This document shows, piece by piece, positions 17,739 through 32,447 of a DNA stretch of 64,000 nt. Source of the DNA: Planctomycetota bacterium (GTDB taxonomy: Bacteria > Planctomycetota > UBA8108 > SXIK01); contig CBDCXR010000004.1 of the NCBI GenBank assembly GCA_965223845.1, positions 4,640,001-4,704,000 of the forward strand, read 5' to 3'. Made by a program: the position numbers and the translations under genes. The notes below the pieces were generated by a model. That model was not told where the DNA came from. It was given only the letters and a program-made list of their open reading frames with translations, and made no database searches. Numbering within the stretch: the first letter of the stretch is position 1; each line of letters opens with the position of its first letter.

Positions 17739-19280
17739 ATGCGAGTGTTTCGAGCGGGCCTCCTCGCCCTCCTGGTCGCGGTGCTCAGCGGGTCTGCGCT
17801 CTCCGCCGAAAGCCGTCCGCCAACCAACATCGTCTGGATCATCGTCGAGGACATGTCGGCGAACTTCGGCTGCTACGGCGAGAAGACGATCGCGACACCG
17901 AACGTTGATCGCCTCGCGCGCGAGGGGATCCGATTTACGAACGCGGTTGTCACGGCGCCCGTCTGCTCGGCCGCGCGTTCTGCGCTCATCACCGGCATGT
18001 ATCAGTCGTCCATCGGAGCTCACCACCACCGCAGCGGCCGCGGCGTGGAGAAGATCCGACTCCCCGATCACGTGAGGACGGTGCCGCGTCTCTTCAAGAA
18101 CGCCGGGTATCTCGTCCTCAATCTCTCGATCCAAGAGTTCGCCGGCCCGTCCCCGAACGAAAGCCGTGCCGCTGCACGGACGCGGGGTCAGGGGAAGAAC
18201 GGCACGCGCGTGAGAATCGCGAAGACCGACTACAACTTCGAGTGGGACGCGGACGATTTCGATCACACGCACTGGTCCTCGCGCCCGGAGGGGCAGCCGT
18301 TCTTTGCGCAGGTCCAGCTCCGCGGGGGAAAGCTCCGCGGCGGCGGCGACGGCAAGCGCTGGCCGAAAACCGTCGAGAAGACACTCGGGAGCACGACACC
18401 GGCAAGCGCGGTGCGCCTACCCCCGTATCTGCCCGCGGATCCCGTCATCGTCGAGGACTGGCGGCAGTATCTCGACGCCGTGCGCTTCACGGACCATGAG
18501 GTCGGGCGCATCGTCGAGCGGCTGCGGGAGAGTGGCGAGCTCGAGCGGACCTACATCTTCTTCATCACCGATCACGGCATCAGTCACGTCCGCAACAAGC
18601 AGTTCTGCTACGACGGAGGCGTCCACATCCCCTTCGTGGTTCGGGGACCCGGCCTCGAGCCCGGCACGACGCGCGAGGACCCGGTCGAGCACATCGACCT
18701 CGCCGCGACCTCGCTCGGTCTCGCGGGCGTAGCGATCCCCGGGTGGATGCAGGCGCGGAACGTGCTCGCGAAGAACTATCGGCCGCGGACGTTCGCATTC
18801 TCGGCTCGCGATCGCTGCGACGAAACCGTCGACCGGATCCGCTCGGTGCGGAGCGGACGCTACAAGTACATTCGCAACTTCTACCCGAAGCGACCGTATC
18901 TTCAGCCGAATCGCTACAAGGACAACAAGCCGATCCTGAAGGCGATGCGACGTCTTCACGCGGCCGGCGAGCTGAATGCCGAGCGAGCGCGCATCATGGC
19001 GGAGTCGCGACCGCCAGAGGAGCTCTACGACCTTCGGGACGATCCGCACGAAGGGAAGAATCTAGCCGCGTCGGTGGAGCACCGACCACAGCTCGAGAGG
19101 ATGCGAGCGGCGCTCGATGACTGGATCCGAGCGACGAAGGACCGCGCTGAGAGCCCCGAGCCCGCTGCGATGTACGACAGCGATATGGCGAAGTACCTCA
19201 AAGAGAAGCGCGGGGAGCAAGGGGAGATCTTGCGGCGCAACATCGCGACGATGAAGGCTTGGGCGCGTGCGGGTCGCTAG
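17739..19280 (+). CDS. Secreted S1 sulfatase
   Basis: Signal peptide, NIVWIIVED, CSAARSALITG, DHG, EELYDL..DPHE..NLA. Confidence 0.9.
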   Translation: MRVFRAGLLALLVAVLSGSALSAESRPPTNIVWIIVEDMSANFGCYGEKTIATPNVDRLAREGIRFTNAVVTAPVCSAARSALITGMYQSSIGAHHHRSGRGVEKIRLPDHVRTVPRLFKNAGYLVLNLSIQEFAGPSPNESRAAARTRGQGKNGTRVRIAKTDYNFEWDADDFDHTHWSSRPEGQPFFAQVQLRGGKLRGGGDGKRWPKTVEKTLGSTTPASAVRLPPYLPADPVIVEDWRQYLDAVRFTDHEVGRIVERLRESGELERTYIFFITDHGISHVRNKQFCYDGGVHIPFVVRGPGLEPGTTREDPVEHIDLAATSLGLAGVAIPGWMQARNVLAKNYRPRTFAFSARDRCDETVDRIRSVRSGRYKYIRNFYPKRPYLQPNRYKDNKPILKAMRRLHAAGELNAERARIMAESRPPEELYDLRDDPHEGKNLAASVEHRPQLERMRAALDDWIRATKDRAESPEPAAMYDSDMAKYLKEKRGEQGEILRRNIATMKAWARAGR

Positions 19281-19372
19281 GGGCGAGCGGCGGATGCGTC
19301 CCTTCGCGACCTTCGTGTGAAACTCTTTTCAGAGATCGGGGTGTCTTCGGGCCGTCAGGCGCCACCGAGCAC

Positions 19373-22180
19373 TCAGTCCGATCCTGAAGTCGCCGGCGCG
19401 CCGAAGAACGTCGCCGCGTTCCCGCGAAGCCCCCCGTCGGCGTCGATCCACGAGTCGAGGACGATTCCCGTCGATGGATCCGTCAGGCGGCGGATCAGAG
19501 TCTGACCGAGCGGTCCGCAGACGTCGGGATCCGTCGCGCCGTCCCGGAGGTTCGGACCCGCGCCCGGTTCGAGAAATGCGTGATTGTTTGAACCGTTCGA
19601 GACGCCGTTTTCGTTCACGATGCGATCGAGGTTGAATCGGACGCTCGCCGGGTCGAACACCTTCGATGCAGGTGCGACGTCGTCGCAGCCGTACCGATTG
19701 ACATCGTTGTCGAGCGGGTTGACGGCGCAGCCGTTCGCGTCGAACAGATAGAGTCCGGTGCCGAGCCCCGCGACCATGTGCACCCAGAAGGGCGAATCCA
19801 TTTGATTGCCGGGATTGCGTCCGATGTGCTCCTGGAGAAGAGCGAAGTCGAGCGCGCCGAAATCGTTCGCCTGAATCGCCGTGCGAAACGTGTCGTACTC
19901 GGTCCCGTACTGAGTGATCGCGTTCTCGGTCAGATGGCAGCTCACGCAGTAGCGCGGCCCTTCGTTGTCGTCGGTCACCCGACCGCGGATCGAGTGCGGC
20001 ATCATCGCGTTATGGCTTAGCGATGGATACGGGTTCGACGGATCGTTCCCGGAGCCGTTGCGGTCATTGAACGCGAAGACATCCGAGCGGACGTCGTTCT
20101 GATCGCGGTAGCGGAAGAACGTCTCCGTGTTCGGGCTGATCGGGCTGATCTTGTTGTGAGCGTCCACGCCGAGCTGAAATGGGACCGGGGTCTGGTAAAC
20201 GAACTCGGCGAAGCGCTCGCGGAAGACGATGCGATCCCCCGTGATGTTGCTGAAGTTATTCCCCGTGTTGTACTCGCCCTCGAGGTGACAGCCGATGCAG
20301 CCGTTCGTCCAGGAAGCGTGGCAGGAGACGCAGCTCATATTGTCGCCGTGGCTGAAGCCCGACGTCACGCCGCCGGTTTGCTGCGGACCGATTCCCGTCG
20401 ACGGATCACCGTCGGCCCGCCCCATCGCGTACGACGCGCGTTCGTTGTAGATCGGCTGTCCGTCGAGCGGGTTCGTCCGCCCATTGTCGACGACGACATC
20501 GCGCGTCTGCGGGACGTAGTGGCGCCGTCCGGTCAAGCGGCTCACGAGGAAGTAGTGCCCGGCCCCGTCTCGCGTCACATGACGGAGCGGCTGACCGTCG
20601 GAGTCCGTCGCCATGACGGCGAGCCGGCCGTCGTACGTCGTTCCGGTCGTCGTCTGGGCGTAGGCCTCTGCCGTCCCGTGGCAGCTCTCGCAGCGGATGG
20701 CGACCGCCTGCTCCTGCCGACTCAGAATCTGGAGATCGTTCGGATCGCCGACTCGACCGCCGTGGAGATCGTGACTGCCATGGCAGTCGATGCAGCCGAG
20801 ACCGGCCTCGTAGTGGACGTCCGGCGGCGTGTCGTCGCGAAGGTCGCCGTCGTAGTCTTCCATGAGGAGGTACTGAGCGCCGTTTCGCCCGTTGAAGGTT
20901 CGATTGCCGACGACCGGGTCGAAGAGACGCGTGTCATTGAAGCTGAACTGAAAGCGCACGGGGTTCGCGGGGTATTGCACTCGCCGGGCGACGTCCCGGT
21001 TCTGATCGAGACGGATTCCCCAGTACTGCATCACCGTTCGATTCGATCCCTGATGGCAGCCCGCACAGGTGTAGTCGTCGATTCCCTCGACGACCTCACC
21101 GCTCGGGAGAGTCTGCGCGATGCTCGCGATCATGTGACGACGCACGTGCGCTCGCTCCGGCGGATCGATGTCGTCGGGATCGAGGGGCTCGAACTTATTG
21201 ATCCGCGGGTCCGTACTCCGGCTGCGCCCGTCGAGCGAGTAGCGCATATGGCACGCGGTACAACCCGACGAGCGGAAATCGCCGTAGCGGTTGTTCGCCC
21301 CCGCGCTCCCGAGATGACAATCGCCGCAGGTGAACGCCACCTGCTCGTGGTAGAGATTCGCTAGCGGCGATCCCGTCCGGAGCCGTCCGTCGGGCTCGAA
21401 GCTGAGCGGGAGGTCCGTCGACGCGTAGACTCCCGAATTGTTGAAAATATCGTCGGCGTTCGTTCCGCCGAATCGACTGAACACCGGAAACTCCATGAGC
21501 TCCGCGACCGGCCCCACACGGTTCGGATCGAATGCGAACGCCGCATCCAGATTCGCGCGGAACCCGAGATCCGCGGCCGTGTTCTCGTAGAGACCGACGT
21601 TTCCCGGGACCTGATTCGGGACGCCCGCCGCGTACATCGCACCCGACAGAACGCCGGCTTCCGTCGCGAGAAGACTCTTCTCTACGCAGTCGACGTGCGG
21701 CTTGTGGCACTGACCGCAGCTGCGTCCGTCCGTGACGACGCGGAGATCGCCGGGATTGACGAATTGGAGGTAGTCGAGCGCCGAGTACGTCGTCCCGCCG
21801 ACGTCGTAGTCCGCGAACTTGTCGATTCCGGTGAGCGTGAGTCGGTTGAAGTACGCATGGCGATTGAAGCGCTGATTCTCTCGGTCCCCGATTTCCGGTG
21901 GCGGCGGAACGTGGGCGCCGAGCTCCGTCTGCGCGGTGCCGTCACCGCCGTGACACTCGGTGCACTTCAGCGTGGCCGCGCCGGGGAACGGATGCGGATT
22001 CTCGAGTCCCGGACCCGAGTAGTCGTCGTGCAGCCCGCCGTTGTGACAACGCATGCACGACTCGGCGGTAGCCGCCTGCGGCGTTACTCGCTCGTCCTCG
22101 TCACCGGAATTGTCCGAGCAGCCGCACAGAGTGAAGCCGACCAGCGTGGCGCTCAGCGCTAGTGTCGCGAGTCGTTCCAT
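19373..22180 (-). CDS. Undecaheme c-type cytochrome lipoprotein (935 aa)
   Basis: MERLATLALSATLVGFTLCG|C lipobox-like signal. Eleven CxxCH counted: CMRCH, CTECH, CGQCH, CGDCH, CTACH, CAGCH, CIDCH, CESCH, CVSCH, CIGCH, CVSCH. Confidence 0.9.
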   Translation of the reverse strand: MERLATLALSATLVGFTLCGCSDNSGDEDERVTPQAATAESCMRCHNGGLHDDYSGPGLENPHPFPGAATLKCTECHGGDGTAQTELGAHVPPPPEIGDRENQRFNRHAYFNRLTLTGIDKFADYDVGGTTYSALDYLQFVNPGDLRVVTDGRSCGQCHKPHVDCVEKSLLATEAGVLSGAMYAAGVPNQVPGNVGLYENTAADLGFRANLDAAFAFDPNRVGPVAELMEFPVFSRFGGTNADDIFNNSGVYASTDLPLSFEPDGRLRTGSPLANLYHEQVAFTCGDCHLGSAGANNRYGDFRSSGCTACHMRYSLDGRSRSTDPRINKFEPLDPDDIDPPERAHVRRHMIASIAQTLPSGEVVEGIDDYTCAGCHQGSNRTVMQYWGIRLDQNRDVARRVQYPANPVRFQFSFNDTRLFDPVVGNRTFNGRNGAQYLLMEDYDGDLRDDTPPDVHYEAGLGCIDCHGSHDLHGGRVGDPNDLQILSRQEQAVAIRCESCHGTAEAYAQTTTGTTYDGRLAVMATDSDGQPLRHVTRDGAGHYFLVSRLTGRRHYVPQTRDVVVDNGRTNPLDGQPIYNERASYAMGRADGDPSTGIGPQQTGGVTSGFSHGDNMSCVSCHASWTNGCIGCHLEGEYNTGNNFSNITGDRIVFRERFAEFVYQTPVPFQLGVDAHNKISPISPNTETFFRYRDQNDVRSDVFAFNDRNGSGNDPSNPYPSLSHNAMMPHSIRGRVTDDNEGPRYCVSCHLTENAITQYGTEYDTFRTAIQANDFGALDFALLQEHIGRNPGNQMDSPFWVHMVAGLGTGLYLFDANGCAVNPLDNDVNRYGCDDVAPASKVFDPASVRFNLDRIVNENGVSNGSNNHAFLEPGAGPNLRDGATDPDVCGPLGQTLIRRLTDPSTGIVLDSWIDADGGLRGNAATFFGAPATSGSD

Positions 22181-22325
22181 CGCATTCCACCGTTCAAGCC
22201 CAGTCGGGCCCGTAAACTCTGCGCCCGCTATCGCAGTCGCCGGCTCACGAACCGCCCCGATGCAAAAAGTTCCCGCGGGGGGGAATCGCAATCGGTACGC
22301 CAAGACGCGATGGGATTCGGCCCCT

Positions 22326-22360
22326 CGGGACATCCGCTCGAGAATCTCGAGGATGTCCCG
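22326..22360. repeat. Strong intergenic inverted repeat (hairpin)
   Basis: CGGGACATCC-GC-TCGAG-AAT-CTCGA-GGATGTCCCG: 10-bp and 5-bp perfect arms, with no U-tract on either strand. Confidence 0.7.
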
Positions 22361-22472
22361 GAAGGAGAGTAGGATGCGAATCGGCGGAGCGCTCATCGGC
22401 GCGGACGGAAAGCCGCGCTTAGGGCGGCGATCGACCAGGACGATTTACCTGACCGGGGCGATTTCGGGGCAG

Positions 22473-24161
22473 CTACCAGCGGAACGTGAGCGCGACGTCC
22501 GCGAAGATCCGGCTCGCTTCGCTCGTATCCGAATACGCGACTCCGGCGGCGAGAAGCCAGGCGCGGGAGAGACGCCAGTGGAAGCGGAGCGAAGCGTCGA
22601 CGACGTGCTGCTCGGCGCGGACTCGACCGAAGAAGTTCGCCCCGCGGGTGGTGAACTCGGTGTAGCGGTAGCCGACGGCGGGCTCGACGATGAATCGATG
22701 CTCAGCGAAGGGAAGATAAAACGAGACGCGGCCGCCGAAGCCCTCGTGCCGCATTCCGTGAAGATTAAAGGCCGATAGCGTCAGACTTCCCGCGGGGAGA
22801 CCCGGCAGTCCGACGCGCGTGAGCGAGACGTTGCCGCGCCAAACGTTGTCCGCGCTCGAATCGAGGAACGCGATCTCTTCGGAGAGGCGCAGGCTACCCG
22901 GAAGCTGATGCGAAGCTCCGATCCAGTAGCGCCAGAAGCCCGAGTCGATCCACTCGTTCTCGTCGAGGTTGCCGATGTCGAGCGCGTCGCGTTCGCCCTC
23001 GGTATCGGGGAGCTCGTGCTTGTCCACGCCGCCGCGGAGTGTGAGCGCGGGACCAAAATCGCGAGTGAGGAGAACGTTGAGTCGTGTCAATCGAACCGGT
23101 CCGCGGTCCGCCTCGGCTGCACCGACGTCGACGTCCACCTCCGACGAAGCGTACGCCGTGAACTCGTCGCGATCGAGCCGCTGATCGACGAGGAGCGCGA
23201 GTCGGTCGGGGCTCCAGCGGTAGAGGGAGCCGAGAAGTCCGGCCGTCATCGAATAGTACTTCGCCCCCGGATCCCCGGACTCGTATGTGAGGTACGGGAC
23301 GACGACGAGCTCGTCCGCGCGGAAGTCGAGATCGTTTCTTCCCGGACGGAAGCCGACCACCGACCCGAAGCGCGTCGCATCGCCGGTGACCTGCTCCGCT
23401 TGAATGCCATCGATGAATCCGACGCCGGGCAGCTCGCGAGGGACGAATCGTCCGAACCGGAGCCAACGCTCGTCGATCCGGCGGTGGAAGGAGAGGCGAT
23501 AGAGCTCGAAGCGAAGTCCCTCGTAGCGGCTGCCGTCGTAGCCGGATCCGTCGCGAAACGCGACATCTCCCGACCATTCGAGCGTCCAGGGCGTGCCTTC
23601 GACGTACTCGAGGGAACCGCTCGAACGCGCACGGGTCGCGTAGAAGTCGTGCTCGTCGGACGCCATCTGATACGCCTGCCGGAGCGTGAGCGAACCTTGA
23701 AAGAGATTTCGCTTCTCACTCGTCCCGGTCGAGTAGAGCTGGAGACGACCCATCAAGGGAACGAAGGAATCGTCCCGATCGCCCTTGAGCGTTTTCGATC
23801 GCTCCCGCTCGCCCTCTTCCGCGACCGCCAGGGCGTCGGCGTGGAGAATCAGATCATCTCCCGCTGCGAGCTTGTTCTGCCGGCGGTCCTCGACGATCTC
23901 GAGAAACACCGACGACTTCGACGTGAGACCGATCCGCACGGTCGCGACGCGATTCCCTTCGAACTCGAGCCAGCCTTCCCCGCCTTCGACGAGTTTCGTT
24001 CCGGAGCCGATCTCCACGTAGACGCCATCGGTCGTCTCGTAGAGATAGCGGCACGGGATCGCTGATTCGTCTCCGAACGCTCGAGACGCGGTGACACACA
24101 GCACGACGACGAGCGCCGCGCGAAGCGTGTGGTTCAGTGCTCTCGAGGACGCGGAAACCAT
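22473..24161 (-). CDS. Putative outer-membrane beta-barrel (porin) of the cytochrome cluster
   Basis: Signal peptide. Many alternating amphipathic aromatic/Gly-rich strands. C-terminal beta-signal-like ADVALTFRW. Lies between multiheme genes. Confidence 0.75.
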   Translation of the reverse strand: MVSASSRALNHTLRAALVVVLCVTASRAFGDESAIPCRYLYETTDGVYVEIGSGTKLVEGGEGWLEFEGNRVATVRIGLTSKSSVFLEIVEDRRQNKLAAGDDLILHADALAVAEEGERERSKTLKGDRDDSFVPLMGRLQLYSTGTSEKRNLFQGSLTLRQAYQMASDEHDFYATRARSSGSLEYVEGTPWTLEWSGDVAFRDGSGYDGSRYEGLRFELYRLSFHRRIDERWLRFGRFVPRELPGVGFIDGIQAEQVTGDATRFGSVVGFRPGRNDLDFRADELVVVPYLTYESGDPGAKYYSMTAGLLGSLYRWSPDRLALLVDQRLDRDEFTAYASSEVDVDVGAAEADRGPVRLTRLNVLLTRDFGPALTLRGGVDKHELPDTEGERDALDIGNLDENEWIDSGFWRYWIGASHQLPGSLRLSEEIAFLDSSADNVWRGNVSLTRVGLPGLPAGSLTLSAFNLHGMRHEGFGGRVSFYLPFAEHRFIVEPAVGYRYTEFTTRGANFFGRVRAEQHVVDASLRFHWRLSRAWLLAAGVAYSDTSEASRIFADVALTFRW

Positions 24162-24198
24162 CGGGATTCGGTCGGACGCGGGCGAAAGTGCCCCTTCC

Positions 24199-25086
24199 TC
24201 ACCTCCAAGCGACCGTGTTGTGACAGTCGAGGCAGTTCGTCGAAAAGCCATTCGCGACGTGATTCGGCGCGTTCACGTAATCGTTCTGGTGACAGGCGAA
24301 GCAGTTTGGATCGAGCGGTGTGAACTGCCCGCTCGCGTGACACTGCGTGCAGTCGAGACCGGCGTGCCCATCGACGAGCGGGAAGGCACTGTGGTCGAAA
24401 CCGCGCGCAGTCCAGGCGAGCGGGGTGTGACATCTCTGGCAGTCGTAGTGCCAGCCGTTGATTACGTGCGGCGGCGACGCGCGCGCGGCGTCTCGCTGAT
24501 GGCAGAATTCACACTCGGGCTGAGTGCCCCGATACTCTCCGAGCGTCGCTCGCTCGTGGCAGGTCTCGCAGGGGGTGATCGCGTGCGCTCCGACCAATGG
24601 AAACCGCGTGCGCGCGTGATCCGCGATCAGCCCGCCGGGACGCCAATGCTCCTCGCCGTGACACTCCGTGCACGCGTTGCCGAGATTGCCGCGGTGCGGA
24701 TCGACGTGACACCCTCCGCATCCCCGCGCAACGTAGGCCTGAACGGGTCCCAGATCGTTGTGGCAAAGAAGACAGTTCGTTTCTGCGTGGGCACCTCGAA
24801 GCGGATGACCGGTCTCCTTCTCGTGATCGAAGGTGAAATCGTCGCGAATCTCGTGCCAGGAGTCCGCGACGTGACAGGTCGAGCATTCCATCGAGAAGTT
24901 GTCGTGCGGCACCACGGGCCCCCACGACTGTTTCCAACTGTTCGGGGGCACGAAGGTCTCGCAGCACACGACTCCGAGAAACGCTGCAAGGGTCGCGAAC
25001 CACACGAGTAGCCGCCCCGCCCGAAGGAGGCGGACGCGATGCGCGCGCGGCTCGATGGAATCGAATCTATTCGGAGCTGAATTCAT
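24199..25086 (-). CDS. Decaheme c-type cytochrome with FDH..F.L.G.H repeats
   Basis: N-terminal hydrophobic segment ending VVCC. Ten CxxCH: CSTCH, CLLCH, CGGCH, CTECH, CETCH, CEFCH, CQRCH, CTQCH, CFACH, CLDCH. Confidence 0.9.
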   Translation of the reverse strand: MNSAPNRFDSIEPRAHRVRLLRAGRLLVWFATLAAFLGVVCCETFVPPNSWKQSWGPVVPHDNFSMECSTCHVADSWHEIRDDFTFDHEKETGHPLRGAHAETNCLLCHNDLGPVQAYVARGCGGCHVDPHRGNLGNACTECHGEEHWRPGGLIADHARTRFPLVGAHAITPCETCHERATLGEYRGTQPECEFCHQRDAARASPPHVINGWHYDCQRCHTPLAWTARGFDHSAFPLVDGHAGLDCTQCHASGQFTPLDPNCFACHQNDYVNAPNHVANGFSTNCLDCHNTVAWR

Positions 25087-26782
25087 GGCAGCTCTGACAC
25101 TCCGTTCCCAGCGGCTTGTAGTGAACGACCTCTTCGCCTTCGACCTCGACGCGGCGGTGACACTTCGAGCACTTCACCTTTTCGTGCGCTCCGTCGAGCT
25201 TGAACTGCGATTGCGTGTTGTGATCGAACGTCGTGATCGTCCAGAGCTCGAAGGATCGATGGCACGACGAACAGCTCTCGTAGTCGCGGAACTGGCCACG
25301 GTGTACGTCGCGGTGGCAGCCGCCGCAGTCCCGCGGCGTCCCCTCGTAGCGACGCACGACGCCTTCGACCCCGGGGCTTTCGATCTGCACGTGGCAGTCG
25401 TTGCAAAGCGCCTTCGCGTGGCCACCCTCTAAGGCGTAGTTCGACGCCTTTGCGTGGTCGTACGGCCGGATCTCGAAGCTGACCGCGTCCTTTCGGTGGC
25501 AGGAGTCACAGTCGCCGGTTTCGATCTCGCGGCTGAACTGCGGTCCGTGAGGAGTCGCATGGCACCCCTTGCAGCTCTTGCTCGTCCCGACGAAGCGTCG
25601 CGTCTTCTCGTCGGCGGGAATCGTGTGACACGCCGAACACGCGGTCGCTCGATGCGCCCCGGAAAGGGCAAACGCCGAGGAATGGTCGTCGACTCCGAAC
25701 GCGGCGGGAAGGAATCCCGACGGACTGTGACAACCGACGCAATTCGCCCCCTTCTCGCCGAACTGCCCGAGGTGCTCGTCGCGGTGGCAGGCCGCACAAT
25801 TGAGCTGGTTTCGAGCGTAGCCGGGAACGGCCGGATCGTGATAGCGCTCCTCGAGCGTCAACTCGTGTGGATGGCATCCGGCGCAGGCGACACCGTCGTG
25901 CGGTACGCCGAGCTTGAATCCGGTCTGTGCGTGAAGCGCGTCCGAGACGTGGAGCATCGCGCCCCGCCAGTGACTCTCCGAAAGCTGGTGGCAATCGCGA
26001 CAATTGCCCACGAACGTGTGGTGAGGCGATCGATGGCAGCTTTCGCAGTCTCGGCCCCGCACCCGGTCGAAGGGAAACGGATGCGGACGACGCCGATCGT
26101 CAGCTTCCGGCAGTACGTGACACTCGGCGCACTCGAGGCGCTCATGCCCTCCCTCGAGCGGAAACTTCGCGCCGTGATCGAACCCGACCGTGGGACGGAA
26201 CCACTCCTGCCCGTGACACGAGCTGCAGTCTCCGCTGATGCCGTCGGTGTGCACATCTTCGTGGCAGGCGGTGCACTCCTGCGTGAGACCGAGAAAGGAC
26301 TCCGCTCGCTTGTGATGACCGAACTCTCCACCGAGAGAGAACTCGCTGTCGCGTTTTTCCGTATGGCACTCCGAGCAATCGAGCTGCTCGTGCTTGCCGG
26401 CGAGCTTGAACTCCGTGTGAGGATGGCGGTAGGCCGCTTTCACATATGGCCCCCACGACGCCTCGCTGACGAGGTCGAACGACGCGCCGTTGTGCTCCGA
26501 GTGGCACGATCGACACGCCACCTCATCGTCGAGGAGAAAATGGTGGATCCCGCTGCCGCCCCAGATCTGAGCGGCGATCTCCTGGTGGCAATCGAGGCAT
26601 CCTTCCGCGAGGCCGCCTTCGCTGTGGCAGTGAACGCACCCCTCGGCGGTCGTGAGCTTTCTCACCTTCGCGTGGGCAGACGAAAGTCCGCCGGGCATCG
26701 GTGCATACTTCGCGAGCATCGCCACGAGGACGAGAATGATCACGGTGCCGACGGCGATCGGTGTCTTGGGATTGAGAAGCAT
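25067..26782 (-). CDS. 20-heme c-type cytochrome with N-terminal membrane anchor/signal
   Basis: Twenty CxxCH counted in 571 aa. Six H-x(3-5)-F/Y-x-L-x-G-x-H-like repeats. Start overlaps the upstream stop (TGATG). Confidence 0.92.
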   Translation of the reverse strand: MLLNPKTPIAVGTVIILVLVAMLAKYAPMPGGLSSAHAKVRKLTTAEGCVHCHSEGGLAEGCLDCHQEIAAQIWGGSGIHHFLLDDEVACRSCHSEHNGASFDLVSEASWGPYVKAAYRHPHTEFKLAGKHEQLDCSECHTEKRDSEFSLGGEFGHHKRAESFLGLTQECTACHEDVHTDGISGDCSSCHGQEWFRPTVGFDHGAKFPLEGGHERLECAECHVLPEADDRRRPHPFPFDRVRGRDCESCHRSPHHTFVGNCRDCHQLSESHWRGAMLHVSDALHAQTGFKLGVPHDGVACAGCHPHELTLEERYHDPAVPGYARNQLNCAACHRDEHLGQFGEKGANCVGCHSPSGFLPAAFGVDDHSSAFALSGAHRATACSACHTIPADEKTRRFVGTSKSCKGCHATPHGPQFSREIETGDCDSCHRKDAVSFEIRPYDHAKASNYALEGGHAKALCNDCHVQIESPGVEGVVRRYEGTPRDCGGCHRDVHRGQFRDYESCSSCHRSFELWTITTFDHNTQSQFKLDGAHEKVKCSKCHRRVEVEGEEVVHYKPLGTECQSCHEFSSE

Positions 26783-28083
26783 CAGCGTCGTCCGAAGAGG
26801 TCACCGAATCCGAGTGCGATCGCGACGTGAAACACGATTCCGAACAAGAGAACGATCGCTAGCCACCGGTGGAAGAATCGCCATGCTCCGATGAGACCGC
26901 GCAGCTCGCGGCAGCGGACGAGCCAACGCCTCTCGCCCCAAAGCCGCACCGCGAGGGCGAGCGCGCGCTGCGCCTCCGAGTCCTGGCAGCGCTTGGCGGC
27001 ACGTTTCAGACGCGCGAGATCGCGCTGCCCTTCGGGATCTCCGCGCACGAGATTGACGATCGTGGCGATGGAAGCGAGCGGCCCTCGCCGTGAACCCTCG
27101 TCGTCGAGGGCGATGATCTTCGGATCGAAGCCGAGCTGGATCAGCTTCCGCCGGTAGACGGCGAGGCGGAGACGGATCGTCTCGAACTCGTTCTCCCGCC
27201 CTTCGAGGTAGCGCGGAACGTGCTTGTAGACAAAGCGGCCGGCCACGCCGCTCACGACGACGATGGCCATCGCCGTGAACGCGAGCATGCCGAGAACGCT
27301 GTGCGGGATAAACGCGGAGTGAAACGCGATGAGAATCGGACCGATGACGCCGGCGAGCATGTGGAACTCGAGCCATGCGCGAGTCGCGCTCGGGCGAACG
27401 CGCGCCGTCGATCGCTTGCGCACGAAGTAGTACATCGAGGCCGCCATGAGCGCCGTTCCGGCGAATCCAAGTGAGAGTCCGAGGACTCCCGATGGACGGA
27501 GCAGTGCGTGGAGATAGTGAAGCGGCCGCAGAGACGGAGTGAGGACGTAGTAACGCCAACCGATCACGGCGAGCACGACGGCGAGCGAGACGACGAAGGC
27601 GCCGGCCGCTCGACACGCCCACGTGAACCGCACACTGCGAGCTTCGTCGTCCGGGTGCGGCGCGAGTTCCTCGTCGATCTCGTGGTCGATCTCGCCTTCA
27701 ACGCGAGCGAGGAATCGGTCAAAGTCCGGATCTTCGAGCTCGTCCGCGCGACGAAGATACTCTTCGAAGACCGGGTCGAAGACCTCGCCCTCGCGGCCGA
27801 GGATCGTCCGCTTCGGATCGTCACTGCGAACGAAGAAGTCCTGCGCTTCGCGCTGAACCGCGGCGTCGTCGACCGCTTCTTCGCGCGCGGGAGTATCTGC
27901 AGAGTCGGCGGGAAAACGGGGCGCCGGATCCGCCGCCGGCGCGCTCTCGGCGCTGACCTCCGGCGGATCGGGAGACAGATCGACGTCGTCGGGAACGATG
28001 ACGACCGGTACGCGCTCGAGAATGAACACCTTGCGCCGAGTCGGCGCCGAGTCGCGCTCTAAGGTCTGCCCGTCGTCATTCAT
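26782..28083 (-). CDS. Inner-membrane di-heme cytochrome b / ferric-reductase-like protein with acidic N-terminal extension
   Basis: About 5 TM helices. Two H-x13-H pairs (FHMLAGVIGPILIAFH; FHRWLAIVLLFGIVFH). ATGA overlap with the upstream gene. Confidence 0.75.
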   Translation of the reverse strand: MNDDGQTLERDSAPTRRKVFILERVPVVIVPDDVDLSPDPPEVSAESAPAADPAPRFPADSADTPAREEAVDDAAVQREAQDFFVRSDDPKRTILGREGEVFDPVFEEYLRRADELEDPDFDRFLARVEGEIDHEIDEELAPHPDDEARSVRFTWACRAAGAFVVSLAVVLAVIGWRYYVLTPSLRPLHYLHALLRPSGVLGLSLGFAGTALMAASMYYFVRKRSTARVRPSATRAWLEFHMLAGVIGPILIAFHSAFIPHSVLGMLAFTAMAIVVVSGVAGRFVYKHVPRYLEGRENEFETIRLRLAVYRRKLIQLGFDPKIIALDDEGSRRGPLASIATIVNLVRGDPEGQRDLARLKRAAKRCQDSEAQRALALAVRLWGERRWLVRCRELRGLIGAWRFFHRWLAIVLLFGIVFHVAIALGFGDLFGRR

Positions 28084-29441
28084 GATCGCGTCCGGACGAA
28101 ATACTCCGCGGCGGCCGCTTCCTCGCCGCCGAAGGAGACGCCGATCTCTCGAAGGAGCGGATAGGGAGGCTCTCCCCCGGCGAACACGAACACGTAGTCG
28201 TTCGGGAGGAGAGTCGACTTCGTCGCACCGTTCTCGTCGATTGCGAGCGTCACGGAGTCGTCGTCGATGCGCTCGACGTTCGAGCGAAACAAGATCTTGA
28301 GTCGACCCTCGTCAGCGAAGCGCGCGACGCGCTCGGCGTTCCGCGCCTTCAGCCGAAAGAACGCGTCTCGACGATAGGACAGGGTGACGTCATTCTCTCC
28401 GTGGTCGGCGAGCGCCGTCGCCGCTTCGATTGCGCTGTCACCTCCGCCCACGACGAGGACGCGTTCTCGTTCGTACGTCGCAGCGTCGATGAGCTGATAG
28501 AGAACCTTCGCGCTCTCCTCTCCCGGCACTCCGAGACGTCTAGGAGTTCCGCGCCGACCGAGTGCGAGAAGCACGGTGCGCGCGGCGATCGTTCCCGTCG
28601 ACGTCTCAGCGAGAAGAGAGTCTCCGCTCCGCTCGACGCCGCGGAGCTTCACGCCCGAACGGACGCGCAGGCCGAAGCGGGCGACGATCTTTTCCCAGAA
28701 CTCGATCAGCTCTTCCTTGAGAAACTCTTCGCGAGCGACTCTCCCGTAGAGCGGTAGCTGCACCGGGCCGGTCAGGGTGAGCTTTCGCCGCGGGTACTTT
28801 CGAACCGTTCCGCCGATGTCGTCCTGATCGATCGTGATGTAGCTGAGCCCGCGCTCGATGGCTCGGAGGCTCGCGGCGAACCCCGCTGGACCTGCACCGA
28901 CGATGAGAACGTCGACGGCGTCGCTCTCGGGTTCGGGTGCCGACGCGAGGCGCTCGGCGATTGCGTCGATCGCCCGCGCGCCCTGCTCGACGGCGATGCG
29001 GATGAGCGCCATCCCGCCGAGCTCACCGGCGATGTAGACGCCGGGGACGGTCGTCTCGAACTGCTCGCTGAGAACCGGAAGATCGGTTCGGCCGCTCGTA
29101 TCGCCGAGCCCGATCGTCACCGCCGCGACGGGACAAGCGTCGGCGCAGCGCCCGTGCCCGATGCAGCGCGCGCCGTGGATCACCTTGGCGACGCCGTCGA
29201 CGAGACCGAGGACGTTTTCCTCGGGGCAGGCTTCGATGCAGCTCCCGCAGCCGATGCACGCGTACGGATCGATCTGCGGGTGCTGCGCGATGGGAACGCT
29301 CGAGCCTCCCGCGTGTGCCGCGCTCAGATGCTCTGCCGCCTGGTTCCGGTGATGCTCGTCGATCTGCCTCTGCCACACGGCGAGAAGCGCGAGCACCACG
29401 AGGAGGACAGCGAGAACGCCGAGAAGGGTGATGTAATCCAA
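28080..29441 (-). CDS. Membrane-anchored ferredoxin-fused FAD/NAD(P)H oxidoreductase (TrxR/YpdA/FNR fold, permuted)
   Basis: TTG start with GGAG RBS; N-terminal TM helix. CIGCGSCIEACP and CIGHGRCADACP; TVPGVYIAGE; VGAGPAG; VGGGDSA; SYRR. Confidence 0.85.
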   Translation of the reverse strand: MDYITLLGVLAVLLVVLALLAVWQRQIDEHHRNQAAEHLSAAHAGGSSVPIAQHPQIDPYACIGCGSCIEACPEENVLGLVDGVAKVIHGARCIGHGRCADACPVAAVTIGLGDTSGRTDLPVLSEQFETTVPGVYIAGELGGMALIRIAVEQGARAIDAIAERLASAPEPESDAVDVLIVGAGPAGFAASLRAIERGLSYITIDQDDIGGTVRKYPRRKLTLTGPVQLPLYGRVAREEFLKEELIEFWEKIVARFGLRVRSGVKLRGVERSGDSLLAETSTGTIAARTVLLALGRRGTPRRLGVPGEESAKVLYQLIDAATYERERVLVVGGGDSAIEAATALADHGENDVTLSYRRDAFFRLKARNAERVARFADEGRLKILFRSNVERIDDDSVTLAIDENGATKSTLLPNDYVFVFAGGEPPYPLLREIGVSFGGEEAAAAEYFVRTRS

Positions 29442-29995
29442 AACGTACTCCGCAGCGTCTCAAACTGCCCATCCCGTCCTCTCGAGAAGGACAGCGAAGC
29501 CGGTCGAGATCGGAGGCGTAGATCTGAAGTGAAACGAGTCGAACGTAACCGCCGTGCGGCGGTTGCTCGGTCCCATAATCGGCGAGTGGATCGCCCTTAG
29601 ACCGAACGTGCGGGAAGCGGATCCTTGATCAGACTTCGGCAGCTCTCGCGCGCTTCTTCGCGTCGAATTCACCCCCGGCCGAGACCGGGGCCGAGAACGT
29701 GCGGCTGCGGCTCGAGTGCGCGGTCGGAAGTGCGGTCTCGTCTCGCATCTCTCGCCGATGGCGCGACCTACGCGATGGTTCCCGTCTCGGCGGCCACCGG
29801 TGATACCGGCCCTTCGTTCCGGTCGTTGTTCGCCGTCTGCGACGAGGCCGCGTCCCGGTCGATTCGCCGGTTTCGTCTTTCGAGCCTCCGCGCTACGCTG
29901 TCCCTTCGTGGCCGGCGACGAAACGCCCGCGTTGCGGCGATCGCTCGGTCCGGGCGCCGCCTAGCCGAGGCTCAGAGAGAGCGTGAGGTCGATCG

Positions 29996-31504
29996 ATGTG
30001 GATCCCGAAGTGGGAGCGTGACCGAGAGAACGGAGTCGACTCGCCCGTGCCGACTCAGGTCGTTTCGAACGAAGAGTTCATCCCGCGGCCACAAACGCGC
30101 GAGCAGAAGCAAGTGGAGCGACTGATCGGCGAACTCGCTGACGAGAAAGCGAAGCGTCTCGGACTCGACCGCCGCTCGTTTCTGCGCACCTCGATGGGGA
30201 TGGCGACGGCTTTTCTCGCAAGCAATATGGTCTACGGCCCCCACTGGGAGGTCAGCGCCGAGGAAACTCTCGAGCCCGCGGCGAACGACGAGCGCTGGCC
30301 GAAGGGAGAGTACTTCATCTTCGACGTACAGACCCACTTCACGAACGGACGCGCGATCGGATTCCGCAACATGGAGTTCATGCGCAACATGGGATTCGAT
30401 CTGAAGGACGACGCCGAGGCCTACGGCTTCCCGAACTTCGTGAAAGAGCTGTTCTTCGACAGCGAGACGAGCATGATCGTCATTTCCGGTGTCCCGGGGA
30501 AGGAAGAGCAGCGCGGAGTGGACGGCACGATTCTCGAAGGAAAGGACCGCGGCGGCGGTCTCCTTCCGAGCTGGCTCATGTCGATGCGAAAGGGCGAGAT
30601 CAACGGTCTCGCCGACTCACAACGCGCGCTTTGCCAGGGCAACTGCGCCCCCAATCACTATTGGGATCGGACGAAGAACGCGCCGGATCACACCGCGCTC
30701 TTCGAACAGATGGAGCGCGAGGTCAAGGACTACGGCATCGATTCGTGGAAGTGGTACTGCCACACGGACCCGGGACGATCCGGGGGCGGATTCAAGCTCG
30801 ACGACGAGACGATGACCTATCCCTTCTATGAAAAATCGAAGGCGCTCGGTCTCAAGATCTTCAGCGTGCACAAGGGATTCGCGTCGCAGTCGCGCCGTCT
30901 CGGTCATCTCGCGCATCCGCGCGACATCGAAAAGGCGGCGCTCGACCACCCGGATTTGACGTTCATCGTGTACCACTCGGCACTCAAGCACGGACCGATG
31001 GAGCCACAGTTTCGGCGTGACGGCTTCTACGATCCGACGACGGGTGATTTCGAATGGCACGCCGACTTGATGGCGATCAAGAAACGCAATCCGAAGCTGT
31101 CGAACGTCTACTGCGAGATCGGCTCGTCATTCGGAATGCTCGCGATAGCCCATCCCGAGATGTGCATGCACCTCATGGGCGCCAACATAAAGCACTACGG
31201 CGTCGACCACGTCATCTGGGGGACGGACTGCCTCTGGTGGGGATCACCGCAATGGGTGATCGACGCATTCAAGCGGTTTCAGATCTCCGACGAGTTGTGC
31301 GCTAAATTCGGATACAAGAAGCTCACGAAGGAAGACAAGGCCAAGATCTTCGGCCTCAACGCGGCGCGGGTGTACGGTGTCGACGTCGACGCGGCGCGGA
31401 AGGGAATCTCCCGCGACGGGCTCGACAAGCTGAAGACGGCTTACCTCGACCGCGGCGGCCACCGCGAGAACGCAGCCTACGGTTGGGTACGTGCGCATGG
31501 CTGA
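29996..31504 (+). CDS. Amidohydrolase-superfamily (Amidohydro_2-like) protein
   Basis: [29 protein letters not shown]. Internal RRSFL motif near residue 60. Confidence 0.85.
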
Positions 31505-32447
31505 ACCGGTGGCTCCTCGCTTCGTTCTGCTCGTCACCGTCGCGCTCGCGGGTGGCTGCCACTCCCAAGCGGGCGGCAGTCTCAATCGGCCGGTCGACGG
31601 TCGCGCGGGCTTCGACTGGGGGTCGGATCACGTCGGACTCCCGCTTCCGGTGATGACGAGCGGAGATGAGTGCCTCTTTTGCCACCGGGAGAGGGTCGGA
31701 GCGACTTGGACGGACGACCCGCACGCACGGAGCCTCCGCGAGCTGACCGAAGACGATTCGGAGTACCGCGCCCTTCGCGAGTCGCCGCCGCGAGCCGCCG
31801 AGGCGGAATTCGTCCTCGGGTCGGGGGAGCGGACGCGTCTCCTCCGCTCGATTGGCTACGGCCGCCTCGCGCTCCTCGAAGACGATGACTGGAACGCGGA
31901 GACCTTCGCGGCGAGTTGCTCCGGCTGCCACGCGACCGGAGCCGACGCGGAGACGGGGACGTTCGTCGCGGTCTCCCTCGAGTGTTCGGTCTGTCACGGC
32001 AACGTGACGGCCGACCACACCGCGTCGCCCGAATCCGTCCATCTCTCGCCTCGGCGGGAGGACGATCCGCGTGTGGCCGCGGCGATCTGCGCTCAGTGTC
32101 ACGCCCGAGGCGGACGCTCACGCTCTACGGGCAAGCCGTATCCGACTCATTTCGTGGCGGGTGACAATCTCTTTCGCGACTTCGAGATCGATCTCTCGGC
32201 CGACGAGCTCCGGGCCGTGTCACTCGTCGACCGTCACGTTCGAGAGAATATCCGGGCGGTCCTGAGTGGCGCATCCTCGGTCACGTGTGTGAGCTGTCAC
32301 GACGTCCACAAGCCATCGACCCGGCGACACCGCCGTCTCCCCCGCACGCAATTCTGTACGATGTGCCATCGGGACGGGGAGGACGCGGCTCGAGCCCTCA
32401 CCGACTGGAGCTCGACCTGTCAAATCCCACCGGAAGGGAGTCACTGA
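31497..32447 (+). CDS. Hexaheme c-type cytochrome lipoprotein
   Basis: Lipobox-like LAGG|C. CLFCH, CSGCH, CSVCH, CAQCH, CVSCH, CTMCH. Overlaps the upstream stop by 8 nt. Confidence 0.85.

Follow-up and report, generated by a model that had tools for sequence, protein, structure and literature searches.

A predicted porin-cytochrome cluster of Planctomycetota with a candidate NAD(P)H-linked flavocytochrome

Introduction

In MtrCAB of Shewanella and in the Pcc and Ext systems of Geobacter, a decaheme-size periplasmic cytochrome, a barrel and an outer lipoprotein cytochrome are encoded side by side, an arrangement found again in the locus described here, which presumably shares their function of electron transfer across the outer membrane. 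Those systems receive their electrons from quinol dehydrogenases (CymA, ImcH, CbcL) and are not known to draw on a flavoprotein. A common logic also unites NOX, FRE, SpNOX and STEAP proteins, in which electrons pass from cytoplasmic NAD(P)H through FAD and two stacked bis-His b hemes to an acceptor on the outside.

The PCC3 and PCC4 porin-cytochrome c clusters are bioinformatic predictions (He et al. 2017, PMC5566968; Gallionellaceae survey, Hoover et al. 2023, PMC10734462). Their inner-membrane protein (IMP) is modelled as tied to the quinone pool, with mostly inward electron flow (Fe(II) oxidation). In PCC4 subgroup II, which includes Planctomycetes, the gene upstream of that for the IMP encodes an Fe-S protein, and Supplementary Table 6 contains, next to similar IMPs, an unnamed 'other redox protein' with a length of 412-805 aa (PMC5566968). 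The terms 'FAD' and 'flavoprotein' do not occur in the accessible text of PMC5566968, and no description of an NAD(P)H link to a PCC3/PCC4-type cluster was found in the accessible literature.

Organization of the locus

The window, that is, the whole 64-kb stretch of DNA analysed, carries on its minus strand (19373-29441) six co-oriented, adjacent genes, g1-g6, identified by ORF calls (Table 1). Overlaps of 4 nt (ATGA, 28080-28083), 1 nt (TGATG at 26782) and 20 nt (25067-25086) join g1/g2, g2/g3 and g3/g4, respectively, and gaps of 37 and 292 nt precede g5 (start 24161) and g6 (start 22180). Longer alternative ORFs begin at 24251 for g5 and 22396 for g6; the 935-aa form of g6 opens with a signal peptide and an LCGC lipobox-like motif, and its homologues align starting at residues 3-18 of this form. 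CxxCH motifs are present in g3 (20), g4 (10) and g6 (11), 41 altogether, and absent from g1, g2 and g5. Since only two other ORFs of at least 80 aa in the rest of the window have two or more such motifs (6 and 3), their density is a local feature and not a product of compositional chance. The ORF calls and motif counts recovered the shared orientation, the overlaps and the 41 motifs given in a preliminary description of this DNA.

Table 1. Coordinates and main evidence for the six genes of the cluster
Gene	Product	Position	Strand	Length and evidence
g1	Membrane-anchored flavo-FeS protein	28080..29441	-	453 aa, TTG start; Pfam, PDB matches, 49 homologues
g2	Putative di-heme b transmembrane protein	26782..28083	-	433 aa; conservation, AF2, Pfam
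g3	20-heme c-type cytochrome	25067..26782	-	571 aa; CxxCH, Cytochrome_C7
g4	10-heme c-type cytochrome	24199..25086	-	295 aa; CxxCH, Cytochrome_C7
g5	Predicted outer-membrane beta-barrel	22473..24161	-	562 aa; AF2, Foldseek
g6	11-heme predicted lipoprotein	19373..22180	-	935 aa; CxxCH, N-terminus, weak ExtM

The flavo-FeS and membrane proteins

The protein g1 begins with a TM helix (residues 1-28), followed by a ferredoxin domain with two cluster motifs (C62xxC65xxC68xxxC72P and C93xxH96xxC99xxxC103P) and a TrxR/YpdA-type domain for FAD and NAD(P)H (Pfam Pyr_redox_3, 1e-39; Fer4_10, 2e-10). The top NCBIfam model was YpdA (148 bits, under the cut-off of 340), and the best solved relatives of the flavoprotein part are YpdA/Bdr (7a7b, 7a76) and TrxR (2zbw), all at about 1e-22, with the TrxR-type ferredoxin-NADP+ reductases (FNRs) 5ygq, 3lzw and 3ab1 matching more weakly. 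Like YpdA/Bdr and these FNRs, g1 is missing the CxxC of TrxR; unlike them, it is membrane-anchored and carries its own fused ferredoxin domain. In the alignment with YpdA, the C-terminal segment of its FAD domain falls at g1 residues 125-168, before the first Rossmann motif, which points to a permuted arrangement. Because no cysteine lies outside the ferredoxin domain, a function as disulfide reductase was rejected. The closest paralogue in the same genome scored 89.5 bits.

Across 49 g1 homologues, C65, C68, C72, C93, C99 and C103 are invariant, as are G182/G184/G187, G332-G334, R357 and R363, so that the FAD and NADPH-type motifs (GxGxxG, GGGDSAxE and the two arginines) show no variation; in the second Fe-S motif, His (H96) replaces the second Cys in 43 of the 49. 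Neither a twin-arginine motif nor a Sec signal was found in g1, the R/K-rich loops of g2 lie on the side of g1 and place its flavoprotein on the positive-inside face, and the fused g1-g2 forms L045 and L046 lack the N-terminal hydrophobic segment. These features speak against a periplasmic position of the flavoprotein domain, in keeping with the cytoplasmic location first proposed.

The N-terminus of g2, about 145 aa long, is acidic, disordered and cytoplasmic; five TM helices follow, of which TM4 bears SGVAG and is separated from TM5 by a helical insert of about 110 aa on the cytoplasmic side. Helices 3 and 5 each carry a W-x3-H-x13-H motif and helix 4 an SGxxG, which together make up the family signature; the two tryptophans, the four histidines and the SGxxG are conserved across 49 sequences, with W237, H241, H255, G279, G282, W401 and H405 invariant and H192 and H419 kept in at least 90%. 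We propose H241/H255 on TM3 and H405/H419 on TM5 as putative heme ligands. The AF2 model has a mean pLDDT of 77.2 (85-95 in the helical core). Among the 49 family members, weak Pfam matches at E ≤ 0.01 were obtained to DUF4405 (38/49), Ferric_reduct (28/49) and Ni_hydr_CYTB (21/49); g2 of the window scored 24.0 bits against DUF4405 (cut-off 26.7), a family for which heme b binding has been demonstrated (PMC11334425). A Foldseek search with g2 gave no match at E ≤ 0.001, and a wide fold search returned hydrogenase-1 cytochrome b (Z 8.2), STEAP4 (8.1), b561 (7.9) and SpNOX (7.3), values in the range that the fold-search tool describes as common among helical bundles. In one database representative (P0154), a protein kinase is joined to a g2-like domain, which shows that the domain can serve in signalling contexts.

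The cytochromes and the barrel

Cytochrome g3 has a TM-like window at residues 1-33 and matches Cytochrome_C7 in five stretches (6.5e-26); no relative was found in the PDB at E ≤ 0.1. Its TM helix or signal anchor may hold it at the inner membrane, from where it would act as a wire across the periplasm. Cytochrome g4, with an N-terminal signal or anchor (Cytochrome_C7, 2.8e-13), is proposed to be inserted in the g5 barrel. In the latter, a signal peptide and a small N-terminal beta domain (34-108) are joined through a disordered linker to a barrel of 22 strands (153-561), predicted by AF2 from 37 sequences with a mean pLDDT of 83.6 and a pTM of 0.75, barrel blocks being mostly above 90. Foldseek gave 298 PDB matches at E ≤ 0.001, and the 47 listed were all outer-membrane barrels (ushers, porins), with TM scores of at most 0.41. 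This confident prediction agrees with the earlier assignment of g5 as a beta-barrel. Sequence membership in the MtrCAB/Pcc families is absent: g5 matched no Pfam or NCBIfam family, including MtrB/PioB, g4 did not match the DmsE/MtrA family model, and g3 reached 37 bits against a DmsE/MtrA-type model with a cut-off of 192.

The N-terminus of g6 is MERLATLALSATLVGFTLCGC, and this predicted lipoprotein is proposed as the terminal cell-surface component. Its match to ExtM is weak (84 bits; cut-off 800), its faintest PDB matches, to nitrite reductases (E values of 0.04-0.4), are not significant, and its sequence showed no CxxCK or similar motif of a catalytic site. Among 8000 scored candidates, 1342 homologues were detected at E ≤ 0.001, the best 120 of which share 62-70% identity and belong mostly to Planctomycetota, including one from Engelhardtia mirabilis; identities for g2 or g5 are far lower (about 30-47%). 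Such conservation would be unusual for a surface cytochrome that contacts minerals and hints at a defined substrate.

Conservation and gene fusion

The cluster was compared across 56 loci that encode a g2 relative, from Planctomycetota, Kiritimatiellales, Verrucomicrobiota and Elusimicrobiota. A g1 orthologue is present in 50 of them (scoring 328-563 bits in loci with the complete gene), in seven of these at the far end of the cluster and still inside it. The six misses comprise two loci without upstream DNA, two with at most 922 bases downstream, L012, which holds only a truncated g2 fragment, and L044, which in fact has a partial g1. In 52 loci the gene immediately downstream of g2 encodes a g3 homologue, and the stop codon of the one often overlaps the start codon of the other; g4 is matched in 52 loci, although a few of these matches are cross-hits on g3, g5 has a homologue in 41, and the order of g3, g4 and g5 is the same in the loci that have them. 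The flavo-FeS gene is hence co-conserved with the cytochromes, as had been anticipated. By comparison, g6 is present in 9 of the 56 loci, and clusters without it have a g4 homologue with 13-33 hemes; in the host's class, g6 lies within 10 kb of g2 in seven of the eight genomes in which both genes were searched and g6 was found.

Six loci contain a single uninterrupted g1-g2 ORF. Among 31 long database representatives that were scanned, taken from the best 150 profile hits, 16 have a complete Fer4+Pyr_redox unit N-terminal to a g2 domain, so that the fusion occurs in at least that many, and one representative, P0091, is an apparent fusion of g1, g2 and a cytochrome c7 domain. Judging by these loci, the design of the cluster is conserved in many uncultured bacteria. 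Their genomes belong to PVC and Elusimicrobiota lineages and are sulfatase-rich and polysaccharide-degrading. The quinone biosynthesis marker MenG/UbiE exceeded the cut-off in 7 of 10 host genomes checked, with an eighth within 2 bits; two Elusimicrobiota hosts gave only generic methyltransferase matches (≤68.6 bits), which incomplete assemblies may explain.

Discussion

On its signature, the g1-g6 cluster is a variant of the predicted PCC3/PCC4 type, because g2 bears the features published for the IMP (five TM helices, an SGxxG in TM4, and a W-x3-H-x13-H motif in both TM3 and TM5; PMC5566968), the two having been compared by signature. The preliminary description had presented g2 as an alternative to the PCC3 inner-membrane protein; that part is abandoned, and g2 is still read as a putative heme b protein. 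Like PCC3, the cluster combines a predicted outer-membrane barrel with a very long periplasmic multiheme cytochrome (20 hemes, against 21-27 in PCC3) and a presumed extracellular one (11 hemes, against 10-35). Two components set it apart from PCC3/PCC4, namely an additional decaheme cytochrome and an FAD/NAD(P)H-2FeS protein that is conserved and in some cases fused. PDB sequence and fold searches found no solved or characterised complex equal to g1-g6, and the claim that no characterised system has this composition holds within these searches.

By analogy, g1+g2 is best read as a NOX-like but non-homologous flavocytochrome. The likeness lies in the His pairs spaced 14 residues apart on TM3 and TM5, the weak Ferric_reduct TM match and the existence of split and fused forms; the structural similarity of g2 to SpNOX and STEAP4 is weak. 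NOX differs in its FNR-type FAD_binding_8/NAD_binding_6 dehydrogenase, compared with a TrxR/YpdA-type two-Rossmann flavoprotein and a two-cluster ferredoxin domain here, in the position of the dehydrogenase (C-terminal versus N-terminal to the membrane domain), in its six rather than five TM helices, and in the acceptor, which for NOX and ferric reductases is O2 or an Fe(III) chelate and here would be a multiheme wire.

On balance, we lean towards a single outward trans-envelope chain, from NAD(P)H through the g1+g2 flavocytochrome to a porin-cytochrome wire, that would act as an electron sink. Cytoplasmic NAD(P)H, probably NADPH, would reduce the FAD of g1, whose two Fe-S clusters would pass electrons to a cytoplasm-side heme b of g2 (His241/His405); after crossing the inner membrane to a periplasm-side heme b (His255/His419), they would move to the inner-membrane-tethered g3, to g4 held in the barrel, and out through g6 to an extracellular or cell-surface acceptor. 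The first half would follow the NADPH oxidase/ferric reductase logic of a cytoplasmic dehydrogenase bolted onto a bis-His di-heme membrane domain. Of the conduit originally proposed, the barrel, the co-conservation, the side of the flavoprotein and the lack of a characterised match agree with the computational checks; flow in either direction is unlikely, and g2 carries the signature of the IMP that it was supposed to replace.

A quinone-coupled, PCC3-type conduit, with g2 acting as quinol:cytochrome c oxidoreductase (or as quinone reductase) and g1 merely feeding or poising the quinone site as an NAD(P)H:quinone module with no direct wire, is unlikely, although several points favour it: He et al. 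suggest a quinone-active cytochrome b as the IMP (PMC5566968), Ni_hydr_CYTB is a quinone-reactive family, hydrogenase-1 cytochrome b is among the structural neighbours of g2, and most hosts carry MenG/UbiE and probably make quinones. Given the marker in 7 of the 10 genomes, quinone independence is not forced by host physiology. However, the tightly linked and repeatedly fused NAD(P)H-FAD-2FeS chain could supply the heme-b domain with electrons independently of quinones, a search for quinone-site motifs identified none, and the two Elusimicrobiota hosts, subject to the completeness of their assemblies, also count against the quinone-coupled reading. It is rather improbable that the cluster is instead a dedicated reductase for a defined soluble substrate (an oxyanion, sulfur or nitrogen species), with g6 as a catalytic terminal enzyme in the periplasm or at the outer membrane and no general conduit to minerals, humics or electrodes, an arrangement in which NAD(P)H input may still hold. 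The 11 hemes of g6 are few for 935 aa, its identity is well above that of the rest of the cluster, and its weak relatives are ExtM-type cytochromes, named from a selenite/tellurite reduction operon (a strong Atlas lead), with the non-significant nitrite reductase matches beside them; yet clusters lacking g6 retain the barrel and a heme-rich g4 homologue, which looks wire-like and not enzyme-like, and g6 has neither the catalytic-site motif nor an ExtM score near the cut-off.

Two further explanations seem very improbable. Electron uptake, with a cathode, a partner cell or extracellular Fe(II) or Mn(II) as the donor and NAD(P)H as the product, would suit PCC3/PCC4, which came to light in Fe(II) oxidisers and were modelled as taking up electrons (PMC5566968), and multiheme conduits can be reversible (PMC10734462); but for such donors the step to NADP+ (about -320 mV) would be strongly uphill and also against the membrane potential, the cluster, as inferred from its Pfam/NCBIfam content, has no energy-coupling subunit, and the hosts are not known lithotrophs. 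Inward flow is thus unlikely. Equally remote is a reading of g1 and g2 as mere neighbours serving another purpose (oxygen or peroxide detoxification, redox sensing) and passing no electrons to the cytochromes. The kinase fusion in P0154 fits such a role, whereas the placement of g3 immediately after g2 and the apparent P0091 fusion speak for a link between the flavocytochrome and the cytochromes.

The cluster type has already been published as a prediction, and the NAD(P)H link appears to be the new element. As an outward chain, the system would move negative charge out of the cell and therefore by itself build no membrane potential; its likely role would be that of an electron sink regenerating NAD(P)+ in polysaccharide-degrading, often fermentative bacteria of the PVC and Elusimicrobiota lineages.

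Organization of the gene cluster

The six-gene cluster at 19373-29441 is a real and conserved trans-envelope multiheme system, a variant of the predicted porin-cytochrome c cluster type PCC3, whose function we infer. Its genes lie where the preliminary description had placed them, all on the minus strand, and the overlaps of 4, 1 and 20 nt and gaps of 37 and 292 nt fit their coordinates. A total of 41 CxxCH motifs is encoded, of which 20 are in g3, 10 in g4 and 11 in g6, with none in g1, g2 and g5, and only two ORFs elsewhere in the 64-kb window carry at least two such motifs. The window belongs to a 7.9-Mb genome in four contigs, and the nearest relatives of the cluster genes are found in Planctomycetota MAGs. 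A search of sequencing runs listed four DNA runs of one study that contain the stretch, possibly from the source sample, and no RNA run. Scans of 19000-30100 returned one promoter-like site (0.8 expected) and seven terminator-like sites (7.5 expected), both at chance level.

Genes of the cluster and other features of the window
Feature	Position	Strand	Length	Description
g1	28080-29441	minus	453 aa	flavo-FeS protein
g2	26782-28083	minus	433 aa	putative di-heme b membrane protein
g3	25067-26782	minus	571 aa	20-heme cytochrome
g4	24199-25086	minus	295 aa	10-heme cytochrome
g5	22473-24161	minus	562 aa, with the start of the preliminary description	predicted beta-barrel
g6	19373-22180	minus	935 aa, with the start of the preliminary description	11-heme predicted lipoprotein
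Amidohydro_2 protein	29996-31504	plus		divergent from g1
Predicted lipoprotein	31491-32447	plus	318 aa	6 CxxCH
ORF	6692-10147	plus	1151 aa	3 CxxCH

A sulfatase gene adjoins the cluster. Upstream of g1 lies a divergent pair (29996-32447) in which the gene for an Amidohydro_2 protein overlaps that for a predicted lipoprotein; the latter may be a further cytochrome tied to the cluster. The remaining ORF with several CxxCH motifs is located elsewhere in the window.

Distribution and co-conservation

A scan for g2 relatives, with one genome per prokaryotic species, yielded 56 loci, which are labelled as Planctomycetota (38), Elusimicrobiota (7), Kiritimatiellales/Pontiella (4), Verrucomicrobiota (2), unclassified (4) and a gammaproteobacterial contig end (1). 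When these loci were searched with the six window proteins by tblastn, matches were obtained for g1 in 50, g3 in 52, g4 in 52 (a few being cross-hits on g3), g5 in 41 and g6 in nine. The co-conservation of the flavo-FeS gene with the cytochromes, on which the preliminary reading depended, is thus borne out in 50 of 56 loci. Where uncut by a contig end, g1 matches score 328-563 bits, compared with 89.5 bits for the highest-scoring paralogue in the window's genome, and they are therefore orthologues rather than generic flavoproteins. Six loci lack a full g1: two are without upstream DNA, two have at most 922 bases downstream, and the other two, L012 (a truncated g2 fragment) and L044 (a partial g1), look degraded. 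In seven loci (L039, L042, L043, L048, L050, L051 and L053) g1 is found at the opposite end of the cluster, showing that its linkage has outlived rearrangement. In the gammaproteobacterial locus L057, located at a contig end, just the final 49 residues of a g2-like protein are present and no cytochromes follow; this locus is uninformative about proteobacterial PCC3.

Among relatives, g2 is patchily distributed, with strong matches in nine of 41 genomes including the window's own. g6 is present in 12 of 59 genomes of the host's class; the g2 profile was also run on eight of these 12, and each of the eight has a strong g2 match, which in seven lies on the same contig at a distance of 4.6 to 7.3 kb, the eighth genome (G016) being fragmented. 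In four genomes (G001, G005, G025 and G037) there are two g2 clusters, g6 being linked to just one of the two, and the g4 homologue of g6-less clusters is enlarged, with 13-33 hemes; two paralogous cluster types therefore coexist.

The flavo-FeS protein g1

g1 starts with a hydrophobic helix (residues 1-28), which is followed by a two-cluster ferredoxin domain and then a flavoprotein part, with Pyr_redox_3/Pyr_redox_2 and Fer4 detected by Pfam. Among curated families YpdA comes closest (148 bits, below its cut-off of 340), and among solved structures YpdA/Bdr and thioredoxin reductases do (approximately 1e-22), with TrxR-type ferredoxin-NADP reductases further down. The motifs of TrxR-type FNR and YpdA-like proteins (FAD GxGxxG, NADPH GGGxxAxE and Arg for the 2'-phosphate) are present, and G182, G184 and G187 of the first, G332-334, S336, A337 and E339 of the second (GGGDSAxE), and R357 and R363 are invariant in 49 g1 orthologues. 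These arginines, which by analogy with E. coli TrxR we take to be NADPH-specific, point to a preference for NADPH over NADH as the donor. Residues 125-168, placed ahead of the first Rossmann motif, correspond in the alignment to the C-terminal FAD-domain segment of YpdA (chain residues 280-324), an order from which the flavoprotein appears to be circularly permuted relative to YpdA/TrxR.

g1 has no cysteine beyond residue 103, and the redox-active CxxC of the TrxR NADPH domain is absent; it is therefore not a disulfide reductase, and the score with TIGR01292 (82 bits against a cut-off of 343) places it outside the family of that model. As for its Fe-S clusters, seven of the eight ligand positions are invariant in the 49 orthologues, whereas the eighth is His in 43, Asp in two, Cys in two, Ile in one and Val in one. 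The second motif (residues 93-103) reads C-x2-H-x2-C-x3-C-P; the cluster at the presumed g1 exit may therefore be a His-ligated [4Fe-4S] or a [3Fe-4S] one.

The putative di-heme b protein g2

For g2, no Pfam or NCBIfam family was above threshold, and 13 word-indexed relatives were found among 8000 scored candidates. A profile built from 49 sequences matched 4450 representative clusters at E<=0.001, 2626 at 1e-10 and 496 at 1e-30. W237, H241, H255, G279, G282, W401 and H405 are invariant in the 49 sequences, and at least 90% of these retain H192 and H419. Five membrane helices are seen in the AF2 model (mean pLDDT 77.2, core 85-95), i.e., 147-174, 200-225, 231-255, 263-288 and a long helix ending at 426, in agreement with hydropathy windows; the modelled N-terminus is acidic and disordered, and approximately 110 residues between TM4 and TM5 form a helical insert. 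The long, acidic, low-confidence extension (residues 1-145) includes a conserved 'P-V/I-V-I-V-P-D-D-V-D' and is absent from homologues of approximately 300 aa.

Weak similarities to known cytochrome b families were also observed. DUF4405 (PF14358) scored 24.0 bits against a cut-off of 26.7 on the window's g2, covering TM5 only, and, when family members were scanned singly at E<=0.01, it matched 38 of 49 (best E 4.7e-8). Ferric_reduct (PF01794) has no match in the window's g2 and matches 28 of 49 members at E<=0.01 (best E 3.2e-5), while Ni_hydr_CYTB has a weak match in 21. Heme b binding has been demonstrated for DUF4405 proteins, according to the accessible part of PMC11334425. Foldseek of the g2 model against the PDB returned nothing at E<=0.001, and a wider search gave only middling Z scores, the best (9.9) being a designed two-heme bundle, with SpNOX (7.3) and STEAP4 (8.1) both inside the noise range. 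A predicted complex of g1 with g2 residues 150-433 scored 0.20 against a mark of 0.32 in a run without controls, which speaks neither for nor against contact between the two.

Fusions of g1 and g2

The strongest argument that g1 and g2 may form one working unit comes from Rosetta-stone fusions. Matches to the two proteins share one frame in eight of 44 compared loci, six of which (L045, L046, L047, L052, L054 and L056) are uninterrupted, with no stop in between, and the translated ORFs of L045, L046 and L054 run from ferredoxin motifs through the flavoprotein to the WRFFHRW helix without a break. Among the best 150 hits of the g2 profile, 31 proteins of at least 480 aa were scanned for fused domains: 16 have complete Fer4 and Pyr_redox domains ahead of the g2 domain, six, which are probably fragments, contain only part of the flavoprotein, eight have no Pfam domain, and one has a protein kinase.

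The kinase case (P0154) has a Ser/Thr protein kinase domain ahead of a g2-like domain, and one of the six partial proteins (P0091, 838 aa) has a cytochrome c7 domain after the partial flavoprotein and the g2 domain. Five of the fused loci (L045, L046, L052, L054 and L056) show no clear g5 match, and L047 shows a weak one of 44 bits; in fused loci a gap of approximately 1.7 kb separates the g3 and g4 homologues, which may hold a divergent barrel gene.

Cytochromes and barrel

g3 and g4 belong to the c7/c3-type multiheme cytochromes, and each begins with an anchor or signal segment. A PDB sequence search with g3 found nothing at E<=0.1, and one with g6 gave non-significant matches only. g5 matches no Pfam or NCBIfam family. 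Its AF2 model (mean pLDDT 83.6, pTM 0.75) begins with a signal helix and a small beta domain (34-108), which a disordered linker connects to 22 strands within 153-561, in keeping with the porin named in the preliminary description. All Foldseek matches listed are outer-membrane barrels with TM-scores of at most 0.41, and g5 would therefore be a barrel without a close solved relative.

ExtM (NF040943) scored 83.7 bits on g6 against a cut-off of 800; g6 is no more than a distant relative of ExtM-type cytochromes. Among 8000 scored candidates, 1342 g6 homologues were found at E<=0.001; the best 120, one of which is from Engelhardtia mirabilis, are 62-70% identical and all unnamed or 'hypothetical', a conservation well above that of g2 or g5 (about 30-47%). 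A g5 homologue (L003:5278-7011) has one in-frame stop and a g6 homologue (G042:C223:5570-8284) one in-frame TGA, which may be sequencing errors, pseudogenes or recoding.

Topology and proposed electron path

Exported Fe-S flavoproteins require a twin-arginine motif, and g1 has none. The TM2-TM3 loop and the TM4-TM5 insert of g2, both rich in R/K, are on the side where the C-terminus of g1 is fused, as expected from a positive-inside topology, and the fused forms of L045 and L046 lack any N-terminal hydrophobic segment. These three features together argue against a periplasmic g1 and for a cytoplasmic flavoprotein, as the preliminary description had assumed. In such an orientation the cytoplasmic face would be close to H241/H405 and the periplasmic face to H255/H419, and the conserved loop Y178-Y179...R186...H192...R196 probably faces the periplasm, where g3 anchors.

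Electrons would then pass from NAD(P)H to FAD and two Fe-S clusters in g1, to the inner and outer hemes b of g2, and onward through the 20 hemes of g3, the 10 hemes of g4 in the g5 barrel and the 11 hemes of g6 to an acceptor. Such an NAD(P)H-fed outward conduit is the reading we favour, as slightly more likely than not. Transfer from the negative to the positive side of the membrane would build no potential, and the system would therefore be an electron sink rather than a coupling site. Flow in either direction had been proposed; inward flow is unlikely, as a run to NADP+ would be uphill twice over. The proposed quinone independence survives in part: it would follow from the architecture, but not from host biology. 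A lack of quinones in the hosts was considered and was not borne out, since most hosts carry the quinone methyltransferase marker (MenG/UbiE), which is above the cut-off in seven of 10 host genomes, reaches 156.4 against 158.35 bits in one, and has weak matches only in two Elusimicrobiota MAGs of unknown completeness.

Comparison with known systems

The accessible part of He et al. 2017 predicts PCC3 and PCC4 clusters with a five-helix inner-membrane protein (IMP), which the authors likened to a ferric-reductase domain and proposed to be a quinone-active cytochrome b, with no significant homology between the IMPs of the two groups (PMC5566968). Compared by description, g2 fits this IMP in all three published motif features: the modelled five TM helices, W-x3-H-x13-H on TM3 and TM5 (W237/H241/H255 and W401/H405/H419), and SGxxG on TM4 (S278-G-V-A-G282). 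The PCC3 set of porin, periplasmic multiheme cytochrome (MHC), extracellular MHC and IMP is matched by g5, g3, g6 (a predicted lipoprotein, putatively extracellular) and g2, respectively, whereas g1 and g4 are outside the PCC3 definition. PCC3 periplasmic cytochromes are described with 21-27 hemes and extracellular ones with 10-35 in the available text of PMC10734462. The preliminary description had also proposed a comparison with MtrAB; the cluster does not belong to the Mtr family: g5 has no MtrB/PioB match, g4 has no match to DmsE/MtrA TIGR03508, and g3 reaches 37.1 bits against a cut-off of 192.2. NOX and ferric reductases differ in using an FNR-type dehydrogenase, whereas g1 combines Pyr_redox and Fer4, and no FAD_binding_8 plus NAD_binding_6 domain of the FNR type was detected by Pfam in g1 or g2; the putative entry module is NOX-like, with a non-homologous dehydrogenase.

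In the accessible text of He et al. 2017, an Fe-S gene precedes that of the IMP in PCC4 subgroup II, which includes Planctomycetes, and an 'other redox protein' without a name accompanies similar IMPs in Supplementary Table 6; the words 'FAD' and 'flavoprotein' do not occur in its main text (PMC5566968). The supplementary tables carry no domain names and do not mention pyridine, FAD or oxidoreductase. PCC clusters, unverified, are reported in Verrucomicrobia, Kiritimatiellaeota and Planctomycetota without this module in the accessible parts of PMC5615132, 10.1101/2020.04.01.018762 and 10.1101/2022.03.26.485925. In a full-text literature search, no paper was found to describe a conduit of this kind fed by an NAD(P)H flavoprotein; the PCC4 domain-architecture figure of He et al., which lay outside that search, may bear on priority. 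Within these searches, the view that this composition has no characterised counterpart stands; the cluster is a variant of a type that is itself a prediction, and the papers searched did not contain its NAD(P)H entry module.

Implications

It is conceivable, at somewhat below even chance, that g1 and g2 constitute a convergent, undescribed class of transmembrane NAD(P)H oxidoreductase, split or fused, assembled from a TrxR-type flavoprotein, two Fe-S clusters and a DUF4405/ferric-reductase-like di-heme b domain, i.e., a NOX built from other parts, which would bypass the quinone pool and connect cytoplasmic NADPH straight to a wire of 41 hemes that spans both membranes. To our knowledge, electron entry into porin-cytochrome conduits is known for a few quinol dehydrogenases only, and, as far as we know, the function of the PCC3/PCC4 IMP has been an open question since 2017. 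A conserved and at times fused NAD(P)H-FAD-FeS partner offers a concrete, testable answer, namely direct pyridine nucleotide-driven extracellular electron transfer (EET), and the natural fusions are ready-made constructs for biochemistry; Engelhardtia mirabilis is a named species with a homologue of the terminal cytochrome. If true, PCC3-type conduits in general would be fed by pyridine nucleotides, and the module would be a compact means of wiring cytoplasmic NADPH to electrodes. It would also change how EET capacity is read from the genomes of abundant, mostly uncultured polysaccharide degraders among Planctomycetota, Kiritimatiellales, Verrucomicrobiota and Elusimicrobiota in sediments, lakes and groundwater. 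A non-respiratory sink for electrons outside the cell would then be available to many fermentative PVC and Elusimicrobiota bacteria, tying fermentation to iron and humic reduction without respiration.
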